Shown here piece after piece: positions 3,361-48,923 of a stretch of 64,000 nt of DNA. Location: the NCBI GenBank assembly GCA_016285645.1, contig JAEERC010000044.1:35040-99039 (forward strand), in the 5' to 3' direction. The position numbers were made by a program, and so were the translations under genes. Source of the stretch: Clostridiaceae bacterium (GTDB taxonomy: Bacteria > Bacillota > Clostridia > Oscillospirales > Acutalibacteraceae). The notes under the pieces are model-generated. The model was not told where the DNA came from, did no database searches, and saw nothing but the letters and a program-made list of their open reading frames with translations. How positions within the stretch are numbered: position 1 is the stretch's first letter; each line of letters starts with the position of its first letter.

Positions 3361-3548
3361 AAAAACGCCCCGCCTTGCCGATGCGCCGACAGTAACCTGC
3401 TCTCAGCAGGTGGGTGCCTCCCGGTGATTTCGCGCTCCCTTCGTCCGCCTGAGCGGGAGGTCTGCAGTCCCTCACCGGAGACCGGCTCCCTATAAATTAC
3501 GTGTTGGGTTACTTCTTGGTCGCATTTATCGCACAAGGCAGGGTCTTT
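3361..3548 (-). ncRNA. ssrS: 6S RNA
   Basis: Minus strand ~185 nt rod: 5' GACCCTGCCTTGTGCG pairs with 3' GCATCGGCAAGGCGGGG; contains GGGAGCC and GGCACCCACCTGCTGAGAGCAGGTT, matching the conserved Firmicute 6S core. Confidence 0.85.
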
Positions 3549-4001: not shown

Positions 4002-5360
4002 ATGCAGAATATATCCGTTGAAAATCTCATAAACAAAGGCGCGTTCGAATGTCCCTGCGGCAAGACGCATTCAGCCCATCTCAAAAAGGCGGTAATAAGC
4101 CGCGGAGCCGTTTCGCTCATGCCCGGATTCATTAAAGAATACGGCTGTAAAAAGCCCTATGTTTTAGCCGATATAAACACCGTAAAAGCGGGCGAAAAAG
4201 CGCTCGAAGTTCTTGATGAAGCGGGAATCGGATATATAAAATATGTATATAACGAAAAGCATATTGAGCCCGATGACACATCGGTAGGCAAAGCGTTTCT
4301 CAATTTCAGTTATTCCTGCGATATCGTTGTCGGAATCGGCTCGGGCGTAATTAACGATATAGGCAAAATCGTTTCGAGAATGACGGGTCTGCCCTATATT
4401 ATTGTGGGCACGGCGCCTTCCATGGACGGTTACGCCTCCTCGACATCTTCGGTTATAAGAGACGGTCTGAAAGTCTCCGTTGACAGCAGATGCCCCGATA
4501 TTGTAATAGGCGATCTCGATATTCTCTGCAAAGCGCCCGCCTATATGGCGGCTGCGGGTCTCGGCGATATGCTCGCTAAATACATAAGCGTTTGCGAGTG
4601 GAGAATCGGCAACGTTGTTACGGGCGAATACTACTGCGAGGAGGTCGCCTCGATTATCCGCTACGCCCTCAATAAATGCGTTGAAGGCGCGGACAAACTC
4701 ACCGACGGCGATGAGCAAACAATCAAAAGCATTATGGAGGGGCTCGTGATTTCCGGTATAGCCGCGGATTACGCCGGAGTGAGCAGACCGGTCTCCGGTG
4801 TGGAACATTATTTTTCACATATCTGGGATATGAGAAACGCCGAATTCGGTACCCCGATGGATCTTCACGGAATACAGTGCGGCATAGGTACGCTTCTCGC
4901 GGTGAAAGGATATAACCGCCTGCTGTCGCTTTCTCCCGACAAAGAAAAGGCGGCGGAAAAATTCAGCTCATTCGACATCGACGCCTGGCGTGAAAAAATA
5001 AGCGGTTATCTCGGCTCGGCAGGGGAGCAGATGATTAAAAACACCCGTACCTGCGAGCTTTACAACGGTGAAAAATTCAACGATAGAATTGAGAATATCT
5101 GCGATAATTGGAATATAATCAAAGAAATCGTTTCGGAGGAAATCCCGCGGTATGAAACTGTTCTCAATATCTTAAAAACAATCAAAGCCCCGGTAAGCTC
5201 CGACGAAATCGGCATTCCCTCAGCAACAAATCCGCTGACTTTCAGAATGACGAAGGATATACGCGACAAATATATTCTTTCGACGCTTCTGTTTGATATG
5301 GGACTTCTCGATGAAACCGCAGAAGATGTTTTCTGCGCGGGAATTGATAATGAGCGGTAA
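4002..5360 (+). CDS. sn-glycerol-1-phosphate dehydrogenase (AraM/EgsA type)
   Basis: N-terminal CPCGKTH, GSGVINDIGK, TAPSMDGYAS, SGVEHYFSHIWDM and LHGIQCGIG motifs. Confidence 0.88.
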   Translation: MQNISVENLINKGAFECPCGKTHSAHLKKAVISRGAVSLMPGFIKEYGCKKPYVLADINTVKAGEKALEVLDEAGIGYIKYVYNEKHIEPDDTSVGKAFLNFSYSCDIVVGIGSGVINDIGKIVSRMTGLPYIIVGTAPSMDGYASSTSSVIRDGLKVSVDSRCPDIVIGDLDILCKAPAYMAAAGLGDMLAKYISVCEWRIGNVVTGEYYCEEVASIIRYALNKCVEGADKLTDGDEQTIKSIMEGLVISGIAADYAGVSRPVSGVEHYFSHIWDMRNAEFGTPMDLHGIQCGIGTLLAVKGYNRLLSLSPDKEKAAEKFSSFDIDAWREKISGYLGSAGEQMIKNTRTCELYNGEKFNDRIENICDNWNIIKEIVSEEIPRYETVLNILKTIKAPVSSDEIGIPSATNPLTFRMTKDIRDKYILSTLLFDMGLLDETAEDVFCAGIDNER

Positions 5361-6579: not shown

Positions 6580-7068
6580 ATGAAAAAAATTGCAGTCATT
6601 ATGGGCAGCGACAGCGACCTGCCCGTTGTACAGAAAGCCATTGATGTTCTCGACGAATACGATATTCCCTATGAGGTGCATGTCTACTCGGCGCACAGAA
6701 CTCCCGAACAGGCGAGAGATTTCTCATTGAACGCCCGCAAAAACGGATTCGGCGCCATTATCGCCGCGGCAGGCAAGGCGGCTCATCTCGCGGGAGCGCT
6801 CGCCGCTAACTCGACTCTGCCTGTTATCGGTATTCCCGTAAAATCTTCAACGCTTGACGGCCTTGACGCTCTGCTTTCAACCGTGCAGATGCCCTCGGGC
6901 ATTCCGGTAGCGACGGTTGCCATTGACGGAGCCGCGAACGCCGCTCTGCTCGCGATTGAGATTCTCGCCGTGAGCGACCCGGTGCTCGCTTCAAAGCTCG
7001 ACAAAGCGAGGGAAGAAGCCGCGCAGAAGGTTCTTGAAAAGGACCGCGGCATGGCGGACAGGTTTTAA
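6580..7068 (+). CDS. purE: N5-CAIR mutase
   Basis: [38 protein letters not shown]. Confidence 0.97.
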
Positions 7069-7254
7069 TTTTTCAAAAGGGGGCGGTCGGTATGAACTCA
7101 GTTGTTTCAAAATGCTGTTTCATTGTGCCTTTCTGCCCTTGTGCCACTATGCTTTCCCGCAATCTTTCAAATTATAATCTTGAATCTTACAGCCGTTCAG
7201 TCTGCGACTAAGCAGATTTTAAACGGCTGTTTATTTATATCGGAGGTAATTGTT

Positions 7255-23781: not shown

Positions 23782-23866
23782 GCGGGTATGGTGAAACTGG
23801 CAAACACGCCGGATTTAGGATCCGGTGGAGCAATCCTTGCAGGTTCAAGTCCTGTTACCCGCACCA
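23782..23866 (+). tRNA. tRNA-Leu(TAG)
   Basis: GCGGGTA...TACCCGC stem, anticodon loop TTTAGGA, long variable arm, CCA end, 85 nt. Confidence 0.96.
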
Positions 23867-24035
23867 ACAAAAAGCACGCCTTGCGCGTGCCTTTTTTGTT
23901 GGCGAATACAAATGGATTTGCTGACTGCAAGAATTCAAATAAGGGGTCCCCGAAAAACAAAGTTTTTTGGGGGGAAGGAGGAACGGCGGAGCGAATGAGG
24001 GCAAAGCCCGAACGATACGGAGCCGGTGACGACGC

Positions 24036-24060
24036 GGTTCAAGTCCTGTTACCCGCACCA
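24036..24060 (+). repeat. Exact 25-bp duplicate of the tRNA-Leu 3' end (att-like)
   Basis: GGTTCAAGTCCTGTTACCCGCACCA identical to 23842-23866. Confidence 0.95.
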
Positions 24061-24094
24061 TGAAAAAGGCAAGTCGAAAGACTTGCCTTTTTCA
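24061..24094 (+). terminator. Terminator-like hairpin after the tRNA 3'-end duplicate
   Basis: tgaaaaaggcaagtc-gaaa-gacttgcctttttca, perfect 15-bp stem. Confidence 0.8.
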
Positions 24095-24277
24095 GCGATA
24101 TGAATTCCTTTCGGAATTCGCGATATATTCCTTCGGAGTTCGATATGTCTCTATGAGACGCGATATGTCCTGCGGGACAAGAAAGGAATTTATATCATAT
24201 CGTGCGCGAGCAAAAGTGAGCGCATATCGTGATTGCTGCAGCAATTATATCGAATCGAGTGAAACGAGATATATCGC
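24095..24277. repeat. Symmetric array of 4x (G)CGATAT and 4x ATATCG(C) motifs separated by short hairpins
   Basis: (G)CGATAT at 24095, 24120, 24141, 24160; ATATCG at 24197, 24224, 24247, 24271; inter-motif spacers are self-complementary. Confidence 0.85.
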
Positions 24278-24546
24278 TTTATTGATAATACAACAGCAGG
24301 TTTTTGCCTGCTGTTTTTGTTTTATGCTCTGTCCCGGTTAATAGTTGAAATGAGTACATTTTTGACCCGTCTTGCATAATTTTAAAAGTAACCCGTGCTT
24401 TTTGTGGCATCAATAAATTTGTAAAGATTAAAAGGATATTAAAACTGCCTTTATTCCCTTGATTTCGCGAAATTGCGGGATTATAATGAATTCGTAAACT
24501 CCCGATTGAAAAAGCGGGAAAATGCTGAATAAACGGAGGAAAAAAC

Positions 24547-25407
24547 ATGAAATACGCGCTCATTACCGGAGCGGCGGGCGGTCTCGCGGGGGCGTGCGCC
24601 GAAAAACTCAGCACGGACGAAAACTGGACGGTATTTGCCGCCGACATTGCCGAGGCGGGGCTCAACGACCTGCGCGAAAGAACAAACGAGAGGGTTATCC
24701 CCCTTGTGCTCGACATCACAAGCGACGAAAGCTGCGAGGCGGCGGCGAAAAAAATTGAAGAGACGGCGGGCAGGCTCGATGTTATCGTAAACGCCGCGGG
24801 CATTCACACCATGGCCTCGCTTGTTGAGGGCAATATTACCTCAACCGTTGAGAAAATGCTCAAAATCAATGTGCTCGGCATGGTGCGCGTAAACAGGATT
24901 ATGTTCCCGCTTGTAAAGGCGGCTCAGGGCAGAATAATCAACTTTTCCTCCGAATGCGGATGGGAAAAGCCTCAGCCCTTCAACGCGCCCTACGCCATTA
25001 CGAAATACGCCGTGGAGGCGTACACAATCGGGCTTCGCAGGGAGCTGAACTTCCTCGGTATGGATGTGGTTAAAATCCAGCCGGGCTCGTTCAAAACGGG
25101 AATGCACAACCAGGCGACCGACGGTTATCAGAAAATACTTGAAACAACGCAGTATTATATACCCGTGCTCACGGTTTTAAAGCCGCTTATGAGCACCGCA
25201 CTCGCCCACCCGCACGACAAGAAATATCTGGTTGAAACGGTTATGAAGGCGATTTACTCGCCCCGCCCGAAAACGAATTACAAAAGCAAAAACACCTGGT
25301 ATCTTGCGGCGATTGATCCCGTACCCGACAAGGTAATCGATTTCGGTTACAGGGCGCTCGTAAACACCGGTTATAAGCTTATGAAAAAATTCGGAAAAGA
25401 CAAATAG
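24547..25407 (+). CDS. SDR family NAD(P)-dependent oxidoreductase
   Basis: LITGAAGGLA, VNAAG, FSS, YAITK catalytic motif. Confidence 0.92.
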   Translation: MKYALITGAAGGLAGACAEKLSTDENWTVFAADIAEAGLNDLRERTNERVIPLVLDITSDESCEAAAKKIEETAGRLDVIVNAAGIHTMASLVEGNITSTVEKMLKINVLGMVRVNRIMFPLVKAAQGRIINFSSECGWEKPQPFNAPYAITKYAVEAYTIGLRRELNFLGMDVVKIQPGSFKTGMHNQATDGYQKILETTQYYIPVLTVLKPLMSTALAHPHDKKYLVETVMKAIYSPRPKTNYKSKNTWYLAAIDPVPDKVIDFGYRALVNTGYKLMKKFGKDK

Positions 25408-25468
25408 GATTACCGTAACGGATGCAAATTGTTTGAGATTATTAACAAAAGCATAACAGAGGAATAAT

Positions 25469-25789
25469 GTAGGGGCGGCTTTCCCAAAAGCCGCCGCGTA
25501 GGGAACGCCGTTCGGCGTTCCGGGCAAAACAAGGTTTTGCCGCCGTAGGGGCGGATATTATCCGCCCGCAACAAGGCATCCGTTAGGACATAAATTTTGC
25601 GCAGACTCCTTTACGCCGTGCCACCTGTCTCGCCTGCCGGCTCGGTCGGTGCTTCTGCCTTCGGCAGAGGTTCCCACCGGGAACCCGCACCCCCAAAGGA
25701 GGAGCCCACGACGGACGGATATTTTGATATATATAAACGGCGGGATGTGGTCATCCCGCCCTACAAGTTATATTTATCTTGCGATAACC
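25469..25789. repeat. REP-like mosaic cluster A (GTAG-tagged palindromes)
   Basis: GTAGGGGCGGCTTTCCCAAAAGCCGCC, GTAGGGAACGCCGTTCGGCGTTCC, GTAGGGGCGGATATTATCCGCCC and inverted GGCGGGATGTGGTCATCCCGCCCTAC; homologous to 48440-48831. Confidence 0.9.
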
Positions 25790-25890
25790 TCAATTCGTTG
25801 TCCCCATTTCCTCTGTTTTCCGCATAATTCTATTGAGTTTTCCCTGTTTATCATTTATAATAATTGCTGAATTGTGCGGAGGGGTTATTG

Positions 25891-27663
25891 ATGAAAACTG
25901 ATAAAAACACGAACGCTTTGAATGCGGAAAACACAAACGAAAGCTCGGGCGCGCTTCTCAGAAAGGCGGTTAAAAAGAACGCTAAATATCTCGTCGGCAT
26001 TGTTCTTTTCTCCGTCGTAACCGCGGGCTTCACCGCTGTCAATCCCGTTTTTTACAAAAAAATAATTGACGAAGCCATTCCGAACAGGGATATAAAAACC
26101 CTGCTTTTCTGTGTAGCGCTGATGGCGGCGTTTCCCGTTGTAAATGTGGGAATATCGCTGCTGAGGCAAAGGTGCGTTTTTAATTTTACGGATAAATGCG
26201 AAAGGGAACTGAGAACTCAGTTTTTCGCTAAAATACTGAGAATGAACTACCCCGCTTTTATGGAGCTCGGGCCCGTAAAACTGATGTCCGTAATCACAAG
26301 AAGCACGGGTCGGATAATCGAATTGTTTTTAAGCACCGATGTAATAACCGGCGTGTCCGCTGTTTTTCAGTCGCTGCTTATCTTCGGAATAATTTTCCGT
26401 TACAACAAAATCATCGCGGCAGTCACCTTTGTTGTGGTTCCCGTCATTTTTATCGCCATAAAATTTTTCCAGGATAAAATCGGAAACCTGCAAAAAGATT
26501 ATCTCCGCATTCTGAACAGGGGTGAAAAATTCTTTCTGCAGGTGTTCAACGGTATGAAAACCGTGCGTTCCTATTCCGGGCAGGAAAAAGAAAAGGCGGG
26601 GCTTAAGCAGTGGCTCGATGAGGTTTCAAAGAACAAATGGGATATTGAAAAGTCCAATATAACCGTCAGGACTTTTATTCCTGTGGCGGCGGCTCAGGTT
26701 GTGCTCGGTGGCATATTCACTTTCTGCGCCTTCTCGGTTATGAAGGACACAATGACAATAGGAATACTGGTAGCGGTTATCACTTATGTTCCGATGCTGA
26801 TAAACAGTATTCAGAGTATATTGAATATGGGAATCGGGAAAATATCCATTTCGAAAATCCTAGACGACCTCGATTCAATTCTCAACGAGGAGGATGAGTA
26901 TGACGGCGGGAACAAAGACGAAATCCCGAACAGCGGCTCACTCGCCTTTAAGGATGTTGACTTCACCTACGGCAGGGAAAACTTCGACCTGAAGATTGAA
27001 AACCTCGAGATTGAAGAGGGCGATTTTGTAACCATAGTGGGCACAACGGGCGGCGGAAAATCCTCCGTAATGGATATAATCAACAAGTATTATCCCATAA
27101 CTTCGGGCAGCGTTTCGTTTGACGGCGTAAGCATTGACGAGATAGGCACCGACACTTTACGCAGGCATATAAGCACTATGTTCCAGGATGTGTATATGTT
27201 CAACGGCACAATAGCGGAGAACATCGCCTACCCCGGAAAGCCCGATCCGGACAGAGTAAATGAGGTTATGGAAAAAGCGCAGCTGACGGAGTTTGTCGGC
27301 AAACTGCCGAACGGGGCACAAGAAATTGTTGAGGCGGACGGCGCGAACTTCTCGGGCGGCGAATGCCAGCGAATCGCCCTCGCCAGAATGCTTTATAAAG
27401 AAGCGGATATTTATCTTCTTGACGAGCCGACAGCCGCTCTGGACGCCAACACATCCAAGGCAATATTCGATGTGCTCGCGGATGAAAACAGAAACGGCAA
27501 AACAATAATTGCTATTACCCACGACGCGGGCAAGGCGACATACGGCAACAAGGTTATTGTTGTCAGCGGCGGCAGAATAATCGAGTACGGCCCGCCCGCG
27601 AAACTTCTGGAACAAAACGGCGCTTTCGCTTCCCTTTACGAAGCGCAGACAAAAATGGATTGA
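25891..27663 (+). CDS. ABC exporter, fused permease/ATPase
   Basis: TM helices plus GTTGGGKS, FSGGECQR, LLDEPT; ATG 25891 after GGAGG. Confidence 0.92.
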   Translation: MKTDKNTNALNAENTNESSGALLRKAVKKNAKYLVGIVLFSVVTAGFTAVNPVFYKKIIDEAIPNRDIKTLLFCVALMAAFPVVNVGISLLRQRCVFNFTDKCERELRTQFFAKILRMNYPAFMELGPVKLMSVITRSTGRIIELFLSTDVITGVSAVFQSLLIFGIIFRYNKIIAAVTFVVVPVIFIAIKFFQDKIGNLQKDYLRILNRGEKFFLQVFNGMKTVRSYSGQEKEKAGLKQWLDEVSKNKWDIEKSNITVRTFIPVAAAQVVLGGIFTFCAFSVMKDTMTIGILVAVITYVPMLINSIQSILNMGIGKISISKILDDLDSILNEEDEYDGGNKDEIPNSGSLAFKDVDFTYGRENFDLKIENLEIEEGDFVTIVGTTGGGKSSVMDIINKYYPITSGSVSFDGVSIDEIGTDTLRRHISTMFQDVYMFNGTIAENIAYPGKPDPDRVNEVMEKAQLTEFVGKLPNGAQEIVEADGANFSGGECQRIALARMLYKEADIYLLDEPTAALDANTSKAIFDVLADENRNGKTIIAITHDAGKATYGNKVIVVSGGRIIEYGPPAKLLEQNGAFASLYEAQTKMD

Positions 27664-27729
27664 GCAGTTTAAAACAGTCATCGGTTGATGGCTGTTTTTT
27701 ATTTTGAAAAAAGCACTTTCGTTATAACC

Positions 27730-28348
27730 GTAGGGCACGGATTCTTCCGTGCCGTTTTGTTTAATTAGCAATGAGAAAGGAGTAATGAGCAATTAAGGGG
27801 CTAACGCCGATTATATAAATGCAGGAAACGCGGAACGGCGTTCCGGGCAAAACACAGTTTTGCAATGTAGGGCACGGATTCTTCCGTGCCGTTTTGTTTA
27901 ATTAGCAATGAGAAAGGAGTAATGAGCAATTAAGGGGCTAACGCCGATTATATAAATGCAGGAAACACGGAACGGCGTTCCGTATGAAACAAAGTTTCAT
28001 GTCATTCCGAGGGAGAAACTTGTTTTGACCGTGGGAATCTCTGCGTTTTCAAGCACTGTCGGGATTGCCACGGCAGTGTGCGCACTGCCTCGCAACGACA
28101 GAATCATTTTCCCGATTCTGTGTCCTCGCGGACATACTTGTCGCGGGCGACAGGTTGTAAGAACCTGCCTGCGGCAGAACCTTGTTACTCGCTCCGCTCG
28201 TAATATGCCCCTACGGCGGAGATTTCATTTAAGCATTCACGACAGACGGATATTTTGATATAATTAAACGGCGGGATTAGGGAATCCCGCCCTACGGTGA
28301 AAAACGAAATAATGCGGTAACTTGCGGGCGGCAGGTTGCCGCCCCTAC
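27730..28348. repeat. REP-like mosaic cluster B (GTAG and GTCATT-type palindromes, 137-bp-period tandem duplication)
   Basis: GTAGGGCACGGATTCTTCCGTGCC at 27730 and 27867; GTCATTCCGAG...GCAACGAC at 28001-28099; homologous to cluster D (inverted) and partly to A. Confidence 0.9.
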
Positions 28349-28392
28349 AGTATAATTGATTTTGCGGCGAACGGCGGTTTTTGAATGTTTTT

Positions 28393-41659: not shown

Positions 41660-42076
41660 GGGTATTTGTCGGCGCAGCGGTCAAAACTTGCAGGCGCTCC
41701 AAGTCGTAAGCAAGTTTTGGGCACCGCAAGAGGGCAGGTTATTGTCGCCCGCAACACGACCGTCCGCGAGGACACAGAATCGGCGAAACGATTCTGTCAT
41801 TGCGAGGCAGTGCGCACACTGCCGTGGCAATCTCGACAATTGTTGTAAAATAAACAGAGATTCCCACGGTCGAAACATGTTTCTCCCTCGGAATGACATA
41901 AAATACAGTTTCATCCGGAACGCCGGACGGCGTTCCCTGCATTTATAATCGGCGAAGCTCATAAATTACTCATTTCGCATTGCTCATTTCTCATTATAAA
42001 ACGGCACGGAAGAATCCGTGCCCTACGGTAAAAATGGATATTGCGGAAAACAGCGGGCGCAGGCTGCCGCCCCTGT
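41660..42076. repeat. REP-like mosaic cluster D (inverted homologue of cluster B)
   Basis: Minus-strand GTAGGGCACGGATTCTTCCGTGCC (42026), heptamer tract, GCAGGGAACGCCGTCCGGCGTTCC, GTCATTCCGAG...GCAATGAC (41897-41796). Confidence 0.9.
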
Positions 42077-42122
42077 ATTTCTCATAATAATTACGCCCGG
42101 CGCGAAGAGCACCGGGCTTCTT

Positions 42123-48354: not shown

Positions 48355-48923
48355 AAAATCCACCCGATAAGGGTGGATTTTTCAATGAGCAGTGAGGAGT
48401 GAGAAGTGAGGAATTGAGGGAGGGCTGCGCCCTCACCCGTTTATATGTCCTCGCGGACGTCCTTGCGGCGGGCGGATAATATCCGCCCCTACGGCGGCAA
48501 AACCTTGTTTTGCCCGGAACGCCGAACGGCGTTCCCTACGCGGCGGCTTTGGGGAAAGCCGCCCTACGGTTACAACAAGATTCATATAGTTTGCAGGGCG
48601 GGATGACCACATCCCGCCGTTTATAGAAATCAAAATTTCCCTCCGTCGTGGGCTCCTCCTTTGGGGGTGCGGGTTCCCGGTGGGAACCTCTGCCGAAGGC
48701 AGAAGCACCGACCGAGCCGGCAGGCGAGACAGGTGGCACGGTGTTGCAATGCAACATCGTGACGGAAGGAGTCTGCATATGTTTTGTCCTCGCGGACATC
48801 CTTGTTGCGGGCGGATAATATCCGCCCCTACGGCATATAATCGGCACAAAGTGCCCCTTAACTACTCATTTCTCCTTTCTCATTACTCATTACATAAAAA
48901 ATCCACCCGATAAGGGTGGATTT
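48355..48923. mobile_element. Putative non-autonomous REP/heptamer element (cluster E, 48381-48897) flanked by a 26-bp duplicated terminator
   Basis: AAAATCCACCCGATAAGGGTGGATTT at 48355-48380 and 48898-48923; inward heptamer tracts; GTAG-tagged palindromes homologous to cluster A. Confidence 0.7.

Follow-up and report, generated by a model that had tools for sequence, protein, structure and literature searches.

Gut-1 RNAs and the array under study

Gut-1 (Rfam RF01706) was reported as a certain RNA, at that time known from human-gut metagenomes only, and it was described without a function, an organism or a gene association (Weinberg et al. 2010, PMC2864571). With their flanks, the seeds BAAZ01000095 and BAAZ01025322 harbour GUGAUAU heptamers and hairpins in a first half and four AUAUCAC heptamers and hairpins in a second half. 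The flanked alignment also shows that the centre of the seed, GGCGAAUAUAA, is complementary to its first unit, UUAUAUUCGCC, and one seed is found directly behind a tRNA and its terminator (PMC2864571). Within the searchable library, Gut-1 is mentioned only in Weinberg et al. 2010, and no paper there connects the PF05635 protein family with either Gut-1 or heptamer repeats. Here we analysed an array of short motifs and hairpins in a 64,000-nt stretch of contig JAEERC010000044.1 from a Clostridiaceae bacterium (the whole stretch is called ‘the window’, and positions refer to it). The segment 24061-24325 of the window is a single, isolated member of a dispersed group of structured elements, the ‘Gut-1’ superfamily, and represents a CGAUAU subtype of it.

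Architecture of the array in the window

The original prediction, made from the letters of the window, described four (G)CGATAT motifs followed by four ATATCG(C) motifs, and both the sequence and a pattern search bear out this description and its coordinates. The forward heptamers are F1 (GCGATAT, 24095-24101), F2 (GCGATAT, 24120-24126), F3 (TCGATAT, 24140-24146) and F4 (GCGATAT, 24160-24166), with CGATAT itself found at 24096, 24121, 24141 and 24161 of the + strand, on which all features of the array are given. The reverse heptamers are R1 (ATATCGT, 24197-24203), R2 (ATATCGT, 24224-24230), R3 (ATATCGA, 24247-24253) and R4 (ATATCGC, 24271-24277). Such a density is not expected by chance: eight copies of CGATAT in 183 nt correspond to a Poisson probability of 2.4e-10, or ~9e-8 after correction for the number of windows, with 85 copies observed in the 64-kb window versus 39.6 expected. 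No second non-coding CGATAT cluster was found in the window, the others (e.g. 4169-4570) being coding sequence.

A different hairpin was predicted to follow each motif. All seven spacers between the heptamers indeed fold as hairpins that abut the heptamers, and the one previously called imperfect is hp2 (ATTCC-TTC-GGAGT, 24127-24139), which has 5 bp including one G.U. The other hairpins of the left half are hp1 (GAATTCC-TTTC-GGAATTC, 24102-24119), hp3 (GTCTC-TAT-GAGAC, 24147-24159) and hp4 (GTCC-TGCG-GGAC, 24167-24178), the latter with a UNCG-type loop. In the right half, hp5 (GCGC-GA-GC-AAAA-GT-GA-GCGC, 24204-24223) has a tandem G.A/A.G internal loop in its stem, hp6 (GATTGC-TGCA-GCAATT) occupies 24231-24246, and hp7 (ATC-GA-G-TGAAA-C-GA-GAT, 24254-24270), with tandem G.A again, is a weak fold by itself. 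The array as a whole folds stably (z = -8.6).

The centre was described as a 13-nt spacer, but it measures 18 nt (24179-24196) and is not neutral. Positions 24181-24196 (GAAAGGAATTTATATC), which end in an additional R-like ATATC, are 94% complementary over 16 nt to 24097-24112, i.e. to F1 and the 5' arm and loop of hp1. The centre thus provides the 3' strand of a long-range stem, P1, which is an alternative to hp1 and is present in the minimum free energy (MFE) fold of the window array. This stem was overlooked in the original prediction, as was a tRNA 3'-end remnant upstream of the array that is described below.

As predicted, the array sits between two terminator-like hairpins. The upstream one, hp0 (24061-24094), is a 15-bp perfect hairpin with an A-run and a T-run that resembles a bidirectional terminator (-22.8 kcal/mol) and joins F1 through ‘CAG’. 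The downstream one (24292-24315) is the 10-bp stem of an intrinsic terminator that, with its T-run, spans 24292-24325 and closes the unit on the + strand. A hairpin is also found at the hp0 position in the homologues, and hp0 is therefore part of the family architecture.

The array is a Gut-1 element of a new subtype

In a permissive scan, the left half of the array (24093-24171) matched the Gut-1 model of Rfam over its full length (model positions 1-77) with 42.3 bits, which is below the Rfam cut-off of 50 bits (E=1.9e-6 over 2 kb, 6e-5 over the 64-kb window). Another CGATAT-type array, in the homologous locus L230, has a similar score (41.2 bits). Genuine Gut-1 members score between 59 and 80 bits in our set of loci (L252, 79.8; L258, 73.3; L253, 66.8; L236, 63.1; L257, 59.1). 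All five are located upstream of genes for four-helix-bundle proteins, their right halves match the same Rfam model on the minus strand, and they have the same forward-plus-inverted architecture as the window array. L257 is the same locus as the seed BAAZ01025322 of Weinberg et al. 2010, and thus the original Gut-1 examples were already in front of a four-helix-bundle gene.

The window array shares several traits with Gut-1. It contains at least three consecutive hairpins separated and flanked by a constant G-Y-G-A-W-A-U-type heptamer, with ‘CA’ in front, and compensatory changes affect nearly all pairs of hp1, hp5, hp6 and hp7 among its homologues. It also has the extended context of an upstream hairpin or terminator, a centre complementary to the first unit, which forms the same long-range stem, and an inverted block downstream. 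The genomic setting is similar as well, both being found in gut Clostridia and often after a tRNA and its terminator. The differences lie in the heptamer, GCGAUAU instead of GUGAAAU or GUGAUAU, and in the score. The Rfam model describes three hairpins over 77 nt, whereas the real unit, with hp0, the centre and the inverted half, covers ~175-265 nt. The array had been presented as an ‘undescribed’ structured non-coding RNA, a claim that was staked on the lack of an Rfam match. Because of the sub-threshold match, and with true Gut-1 members sharing the whole architecture, the claim of novelty fails in part. The window array is of the Gut-1 kind, and it represents a new subtype with a CGAUAU heptamer that is missed by the Rfam threshold.

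Distribution and layout of homologous arrays

Homologues were collected from viral contigs and from a collection of species-representative genomes, using a pattern anchored on the centre of the array. Among the matches listed for a looser three-motif pattern applied to the viral contigs, most were tandem repeats in coding sequences, and only L018 and L114 were real. At least 120 loci were found in the species-representative genomes, practically all of them metagenome-assembled genomes of Clostridia, Oscillospiraceae or Acutalibacteraceae from ruminant and other guts. Arrays were also found on three phage contigs (L018, L114 and L126). Sequencing runs in which the window sequence is present come from gut metagenomes, among them bovine and goat ones.

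The most frequent layout, with four forward and four reverse heptamers, is found in 68 of 127 arrays, and the median length is 175 nt. The order of the elements is constant: hp0; CAG, CAT or CGT followed by CGATAT; hp1 (aaatYYc-N4-gRRattt); three further heptamer-hairpin units; a centre that ends with ATATC; and four ATATCG with three hairpins. Near-identical paralogous arrays occur within one genome (L160, L209, L179). The succession of tRNA, terminator and array is found in L147, L151, L190, L195, L225 and L233, and six solitary CGATAT arrays are located 36-42 nt behind a tRNA. Clustering of the neighbouring genes revealed unrelated housekeeping genes, apart from one recurrent downstream family.

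Some arrays deviate from the common layout. In the podovirus-like phage L018, an array located between the terminase large subunit and portal genes (1428-1571) has the opposite polarity, with four ATATCGA followed by four TCGATAT and hairpins between them. A second array of this contig, ahead of the major head gene (4343-4523), runs F-to-R as usual and is flanked by an 18-nt direct repeat, CCCGGCTAAGCGAGCCGC. Phage L114 carries half arrays, with forward heptamers only, between late genes (5009-5077 and 7058-7157), and in L204 a forward-only half array directly precedes another gene that follows the four-helix-bundle gene. The forward half can thus occur alone, as in some Gut-1 seeds. Arrays of the TGATAT and TGAAAT types are found within a few hundred bases of CGATAT arrays in the same genome (L161:2716-2864, L207:3459-3583, L236:96-266), and in them the sequence of the centre repeats that of the final hairpin's 5' arm, which amounts to a mirrored closing stem. 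Lastly, a conserved tail follows R4 in a subset of L131, L136, L188, L195, L212, L217 and L218 (‘...GCATCTAAACC...’), and another tail in a different subset (‘agcttctgtggacacagaagc...’). These tails may reflect orthologous loci or further conserved RNA elements.

Conserved structure and competing folds

Among the 68 arrays with the 4+4 layout, each hairpin position is occupied by 47 to 61 distinct sequences. Nevertheless, stems of at least 4 bp close 60-96% of the spacers, versus 1.5-3% after shuffling. We assessed covariation formally on a MAFFT alignment of 64 arrays, using a structure that combines hp1, hp5, hp6 and hp7 with a ladder in which forward heptamers pair with reverse heptamers. 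In this structure, 95.4% of the cells are paired, versus 81.0% in shuffles and 22-48% in slid controls. Its covariation score is 0.378 versus 0.124, with 0 of 500 shuffles as high, and six of the seven pairs of hp1 are changed on both sides. The stem frequencies and the pair counts thus agree with the original proposal that structure is kept while the spacer sequences vary. The array is real and non-random, and it is under selection for structure.

The P1 stem is equally well conserved. In each of the 68 arrays it is 12-14 bp long, and it follows hp1 in sequence; on the alignment of 64 arrays, 96.1% of its positions are paired and six pairs are changed on both sides. In the P1 fold, this stem closes the left half. 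In the ladder fold, hp1 forms, and F1-F4 pair with R4-R1 to make four 7-bp helices joined by four-way junctions. Since both P1 and the hp1/ladder combination are conserved, two global folds compete. The mean energies of the 68 arrays, from F1 to R4, are -60.8 kcal/mol for the unconstrained MFE fold, -58.5 with the ladder enforced and -52.7 with P1 enforced, and the ladder is the more stable of the two in 60 of them. In most family members the enforced ladder is thus close to the MFE, in agreement with the original idea that left and right motifs can form a branched multi-stem. The window array is an exception, with an MFE of -63.2 kcal/mol that corresponds to the P1 fold, and -55.8 with the ladder enforced; it favours P1 because this stem is 16 bp long.

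The ladder helices are almost invariant, and therefore only the seventh position of the heptamers can covary within the CGATAT subtype. It does so, with G:C in 56 arrays, U:A in 49 and ~12 exceptions. Forward and reverse heptamers are mutually complementary in every subtype (CGAUAU/AUAUCG, UGAUAU/AUAUCA, UGAAAU/AUUUCA, GCUAAAU/AUUUAGC, GUGAAGC/GCUUCAC). This matching is predicted by pairing, and equally by an inverted DNA site.

Strand bias and transcription

The features of the strand favour an RNA that is read in the F-to-R direction. The stems contain 17 G.U versus five A.C pairs, and 11 versus one when the right half is taken alone. In 46 of 68 arrays, folding is better for the + strand (p=8e-4). 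Conserved tandem G.A/A.G pairs with a GNRA-like interior (GAGYGAARCGA) are found in the hairpins of the right half; on the opposite strand, these pairs would read C.U/U.C. UNCG loops are also found among the array hairpins. Furthermore, the left neighbouring gene is co-directional with the array in 81 cases versus 21 and ends a median of 30 nt before F1. Between tandem genes, the array is oriented along the gene direction in 35 cases versus eight, and convergent intergenic regions are preferred over divergent ones (24 versus 8). The direction of the right neighbour is unbiased (54 versus 40). Replication-related bias of the gene strand could contribute part of this polarity.

At several loci, a promoter (e.g. 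TTGATA-17-TATAAT) ends six or seven bases before hp0, and in other copies, including that of the window, hp0 is a terminator. Transcriptomes of an isolate that harbours L257 yield a single contig that extends from the tRNA 3' end across hp0 and the array into the four-helix-bundle gene. The contigs carry no strand information and give mean depths only; on that scale, among three informative runs, the word depth of the L257 contig relative to that of the upstream gene is 15-fold in X34 (1363 versus 93), 5.5-fold in X36 (4070 versus 734) and near parity in X35 (999 versus 851). Ends joined to adapters mark the tRNA termini in these transcriptomes.

Association with genes for PF05635 four-helix-bundle proteins

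The only recurrent downstream family is a protein of ~117 residues that matches PF05635 with 76-80 bits (‘23S rRNA-intervening sequence protein’) and TIGR02436 with 86 bits (‘four helix bundle protein’). By sequence, a single relative is found in the PDB, the uncharacterised protein 2RLD, whose entry contains five chains. In at least 15 of 127 loci, the gene starts 9-32 nt, and usually 17-20 nt, after R4, with only a ribosome-binding site (RBS) between them. These array-gene pairs are found behind several types of upstream genes (rumA-like, ABC ATPase and SerS-like), with the rumA-array-gene arrangement in six loci, and L236 contains a further pair. The protein subgroup that starts with ‘MNDKTIKELA’ goes with gCGATAT/ATATCGc and the ‘MEQNKN.LRE’ subgroup with tCGATAT/ATATCGa. 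Arrays built on the same plan but with other heptamers precede more distant paralogues, with four GCTAAAT and four ATTTAGC in L154 and four AAATCAT in L197.

To extend the comparison, we collected 80 metagenomic and 23 IMG/VR loci that code for further homologues of 32-73% identity. Within 250 nt upstream of the gene, 34 of 70 loci (49%) have a 6-mer that is repeated at least five times on either strand, versus 3.4% of 844 control windows drawn from the same loci (Mann-Whitney p=3e-20). Upstream of the nearer homologues, the arrays are of the 4+4 type, their spacers are hairpins, and the heptamers are specific to the lineage (TGAAAT, GAAATA, GTGATA, GAAATC, TGATAT, GTGAAGC and others). Distant homologues have simple tandem heptamers such as (AGTGAAT)x10, (TTAGGAR)x17 and ATTCGTA x4, some of them with inverted blocks on both sides of the gene. 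The (AGTGAAT)x10 repeat belongs to L283; in L324 (~2380-2500), each unit of (TTAGGAR)x17 contains a Shine-Dalgarno-like AGGAG. In L345, six units of (TCAAAAY)x3-4 with one conserved hairpin are found downstream of the gene.

In 20 of ~85 loci, a co-directional tRNA, of many identities, ends 160-400 nt before the gene, giving the order tRNA, terminator, array and gene. In L149, L156, L216 and L242, decayed four-helix-bundle genes, truncated or with in-frame stops, directly follow the arrays, which suggests that frequent decay of the gene leaves solitary arrays. No PADLOC defence-system model matched the protein, and the PHROGs gave a weak match only.

The array in the context of other systems

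Several described systems share parts of this organization. TRAP, which binds 11 (G/U)AG repeats, and the leaders of ribosomal-protein genes also combine regularly spaced short RNA motifs with the nearby gene of a small homo-oligomeric protein. The likeness is one of analogy only, but such an arrangement would be a plausible route to feedback control. Unlike in those leaders, the spacers of the arrays are hairpins, and the motifs also occur inverted and far from the gene. The 23S rRNA intervening sequences with PF05635 open reading frames (ORFs) and the Avd proteins of diversity-generating retroelements (DGRs) involve the same protein family. The intervening sequences also resemble the arrays in that structured RNA derives from stable-RNA operons, here tRNA 3' flanks, with inverted sequences able to form long stems. 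Nevertheless, the gene follows the inverted blocks in our loci instead of being between them, and it is not inside rRNA; neither a reverse transcriptase nor template and variable repeats were seen at the array loci. The attC sites of integrons are similar in that structure is kept while sequence varies, in their fixed orientation just 3' of ORFs and in their 7-nt core sites in inverted pairs. The arrays differ from them by the lack of the GTTRRRY core, by eight sites rather than four and by many internal hairpins, and no integrase or cassette array was seen. A clustered regularly interspaced short palindromic repeats (CRISPR) array was also considered and rejected on account of the 7-nt repeat versus ~23-50 nt, the palindromic hairpins as spacers and the flip of orientation at the centre.

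The locus in the window and its history

The array was originally placed downstream of a tRNA-Leu gene. It is downstream, but the intact tRNA-Leu(TAG) (23782-23866, +; identified with ARAGORN, 59 bits with the Rfam tRNA model) is ~230 nt away, with a copy of the tRNA 3' end between them. This copy reproduces the last 25 nt of the gene (23842-23866) exactly at 24036-24060 (+), 194 nt downstream of the original and directly before hp0. Weaker similarity begins at 24019, the whole duplicate covering 24019-24062. The intervening stretch, 23867-24035, has a terminator of its own (23874-23890) and a second hairpin (23948-23972). Positions 24036-24060 are probably the displaced original 3' end of tRNA-Leu. 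The presence of this duplicate suggests that the array was first directly behind tRNA-Leu, as in L151, and was later pushed off by an element that integrated at the tRNA 3' end. That element would now be reduced to the ~170 nt of 23867-24035, a region that looks like the attachment (att)-type scar of a largely deleted element in tRNA-Leu.

The next gene codes for a short-chain dehydrogenase (SDR) and starts at 24547, 270 nt from the array, behind the terminator and with its own promoter (24459-24487). With no four-helix-bundle gene and with the SDR gene so separated, the window array is a solitary copy within the tRNA-Leu trailer. No part of the family unit is missing from it, and its P1 is unusually long. 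The neighbouring genes are upp, rpiB, tsaB/E, SDR and an ABC transporter, with Pfam labels taken from the contig of a close strain, L247.

The flanks of L247 are 97-98% identical to those of the window, and hp0, the right half and the terminator are nearly unchanged. In contrast, hp1-hp4 and the P1 partner are all swapped for other sequences that are still self-complementary. On sequence grounds, this replacement of the left half looks like a conversion by another copy of the array rather than point mutation, and the swap indicates that array copies interact at the DNA level. L247 also has a second copy of the terminator upstream of the array (L247:141-172). Between the terminator of the array and the SDR gene, it carries a 1.75-kb insertion (L247:446-2196 versus window 24323-24408) with a DUF6273 gene and a 65-residue ORF on the minus strand.

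A second intergenic repeat family is present in the window. It consists of GTAGGG clusters with GC-rich hairpins of differing sequence, similar to repetitive extragenic palindromic (REP) sequences or bacterial interspersed mosaic elements (BIMEs), in both orientations (25460-25620, 27700-28000, 28200-28360, 41925-42080 and 48435-48655). The ABC-transporter gene located between two of these clusters (25864-27663) is missing from L247. Other features of the window are a 6S RNA at 3363-3547 (-; Rfam, 64 bits) and a cluster of four tRNA genes (Gly, Arg, His and Gln) at 2145-2644 (+; ARAGORN).

Interpretation and alternative explanations

The reading that we favour, at a probability of about 0.45, is that the array is transcribed into a structured RNA and that a cognate four-helix-bundle protein docks on its heptamers, with the window copy as a solo that lacks the gene. 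Transcription of the + strand of the window array would take place by read-through from tRNA-Leu and hp0, and it would stop at the terminator 24292-24325. The RNA is predicted to fold into eight hairpins that present the heptamers either as single-stranded linkers, in the P1 fold, or as four F:R helices, in the ladder fold. The heptamers would be the recognition units of a cognate oligomeric PF05635 protein, similar to the 23S-rRNA-intervening sequence (IVS) proteins or to Avd, with RNA as the bound form. An array directly before the gene of its protein might mediate feedback control or processing of the mRNA. Solos in the 3' trailers of tRNAs and genes or in phage late operons could be further binding sites or leftovers of the module. 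The link to the four-helix-bundle gene thus keeps alive one possibility raised in the original prediction, a protein-binding array, the binding itself being predicted.

Several observations weigh against this reading. In the window, hp0 is a strong terminator, so that transcription of the array depends on read-through, and the array was recovered in contigs of rumen RNA runs at a depth of only 2-7x, strandless and partly from other strains or other array copies. A tblastn search found no homologue of the four-helix-bundle gene anywhere in the 64-kb window, and none was found on the phage contigs. As for the ladder, a few arrays have mismatches at the seventh base (L209, L218), and the arrays with mixed seventh bases revealed no specific Fi:Rj register, with all 16 combinations pairing 6.7-6.9 of seven positions. 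The match between heptamers and protein subgroups could reflect co-inheritance of neighbours, not recognition, and the presence of several heptamer types in one genome requires several paralogous proteins. In addition, eight of 16 classical Gut-1/four-helix-bundle loci have a promoter-like site of the sigma-70 type between the array and the gene, with the -35 element abutting the last heptamer, and in L257, L264 and L268 a fifth heptamer overlaps an extended -10 element (TGATATATT). These promoter-adjacent heptamers fit control at the DNA level as well.

The latter arrangement is what would be expected of an array of double-stranded DNA operators, in which a regulator, possibly the four-helix-bundle protein itself, binds the heptamers and controls the adjacent promoter, the hairpins being irrelevant. 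The symmetry of forward and inverted sites suits dimeric DNA binders. Such a mechanism leaves the compensatory changes in seven hairpins and P1, the G.U bias and the polarity relative to the upstream gene unexplained, however. In the CGATAT subtype, the gap between the array and the ATG, ~18 nt, is that of an RBS, with the promoter upstream of the array, and the window copy has no promoter to control. We thus consider an operator array improbable. Another explanation, which we judge unlikely though less so than the operator, keeps the RNA and dispenses with the protein. The array, with its stacked hairpins and the long quasi-duplex that F:R pairing would create, would be a cis-acting module, i.e. 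an exonuclease barrier, a processing site for RNase III or RNase Y, or a terminator or insulator that separates the downstream message from tRNA or operon transcripts. The location ~30 nt after co-directional stops, the positions in phage L018 between the terminase and portal genes and between the scaffold and major head genes, the proximity to tRNA genes, the terminators that flank the arrays at many loci and the stable folds are all in line with such a role. PF05635 genes are found elsewhere inside 23S rRNA intervening sequences excised by RNase III, which also speaks for it. Nevertheless, structure alone needs neither eight identical heptamers nor lineage-specific ones, and the presence of the same small gene family at a fixed distance after the array is left unexplained.

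A DNA-level explanation of similar, low probability is that of a REP/BIME- or REPIN-like repeat (REPIN, REP doublet forming hairpins). The array would act as a single-stranded DNA hairpin copied or homogenised by recombination or by an enzyme, with the four-helix-bundle gene as the flanked ‘host’ gene and the RNA effects as a by-product. The arrays are indeed multi-copy and dispersed, with near-identical paralogues in one genome, and they are made of short motifs with hairpins in inverted blocks, located outside genes at their 3' ends, including between convergent genes. As with the REP-associated tyrosine transposases (RAYTs) of REPINs, a small partner gene is flanked by its own type of repeat, on both sides in L204, L224, L252, L337 and L345, and several types may occur per genome. 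The exchange of the left half next to an unchanged right half between the window and L247 resembles gene conversion, and REP-like GTAGGG clusters with hairpins are present in the same window. However, REPs share a palindrome within the genome and a GTAG-type 5' motif, whereas here the motif is CGATAT and the hairpins vary both inside an array and from one array to another. As partner, there is a four-helix-bundle protein instead of an HUH Y1 transposase; among the neighbouring genes, no HUH/RAYT or other transposase was noticed beside the arrays, and to our knowledge PF05635 has no known nuclease motif. The fixed 4+4 order and the conserved long-range stem are also distinctive, selection on one RNA strand is indicated by the excess of G.U over A.C and by the tandem G.A motifs, and orthologous positions are kept across species, as in the six rumA-array-gene loci. 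Lastly, no systematic flanking direct repeats were found around the arrays, and for the same reason the miniature inverted-repeat transposable element (MITE)-like nature proposed in the original prediction is not supported. When 70 nt of upstream flank are compared with 110 nt of downstream flank, the longest shared word has a mean of 6.84 nt versus 6.64 in mismatched pairs, a test that does not reach duplications of 2-5 bp, and shared flank words of at least 10 nt occur in six of 116 arrays versus nine of 347 mismatched pairs. Neither inverted repeats nor target-site duplications were found flanking the arrays, except for the 18-nt direct repeat of L018.

The copy of the tRNA-Leu 3' end directly upstream of hp0 also raises the possibility that the motifs are arm-type integrase sites, which are short repeats in both orientations, or the att remains of an element that had integrated at tRNA-Leu. 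This explanation is very improbable, and we rejected it as a general one: the same array is found at at least 120 loci, mostly without tRNA duplication, no integrase-like ORF was found within ~5 kb of the window array, and the covariation of the hairpins would not be explained. An old integration may still account for the 25-nt duplicate.

Significance

Gut-1 has been listed in Rfam since 2010 as a certain RNA without organism or function, with a 77-nt model. Its true unit is at least ~175 nt long, with a two-fold pseudo-symmetry, a conserved alternative long-range stem and many heptamer ‘dialects’, and Gut-1-like arrays are common in Oscillospirales from the guts of ruminants and humans, as well as in the phages of these bacteria. 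For annotation, these traits provide a rule to recognise a frequent intergenic element of gut Clostridia that is missed by gene callers and by Rfam thresholds.

The association with PF05635 genes is the most valuable outcome of this work and is directly testable. The family is itself a long-standing orphan outside DGRs. If the protein reads the heptamers, this would explain the location of these genes in rRNA intervening sequences and behind tRNAs. We tentatively propose, as a broader conjecture that is rather less likely to be right than wrong, that Gut-1-type arrays and PF05635 proteins form a widespread cognate RNA-protein pair of diversifying specificity. Each lineage would have its own heptamer, and the pairs would ride on stable-RNA operons, in tRNA 3' flanks and 23S rRNA intervening sequences, and seed solos in bacterial and phage genomes. 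If true, the Gut-1 RNA and the ‘IVS proteins’ outside DGRs would both acquire a function, in a partnership similar to that of REPINs and RAYTs but working through RNA.

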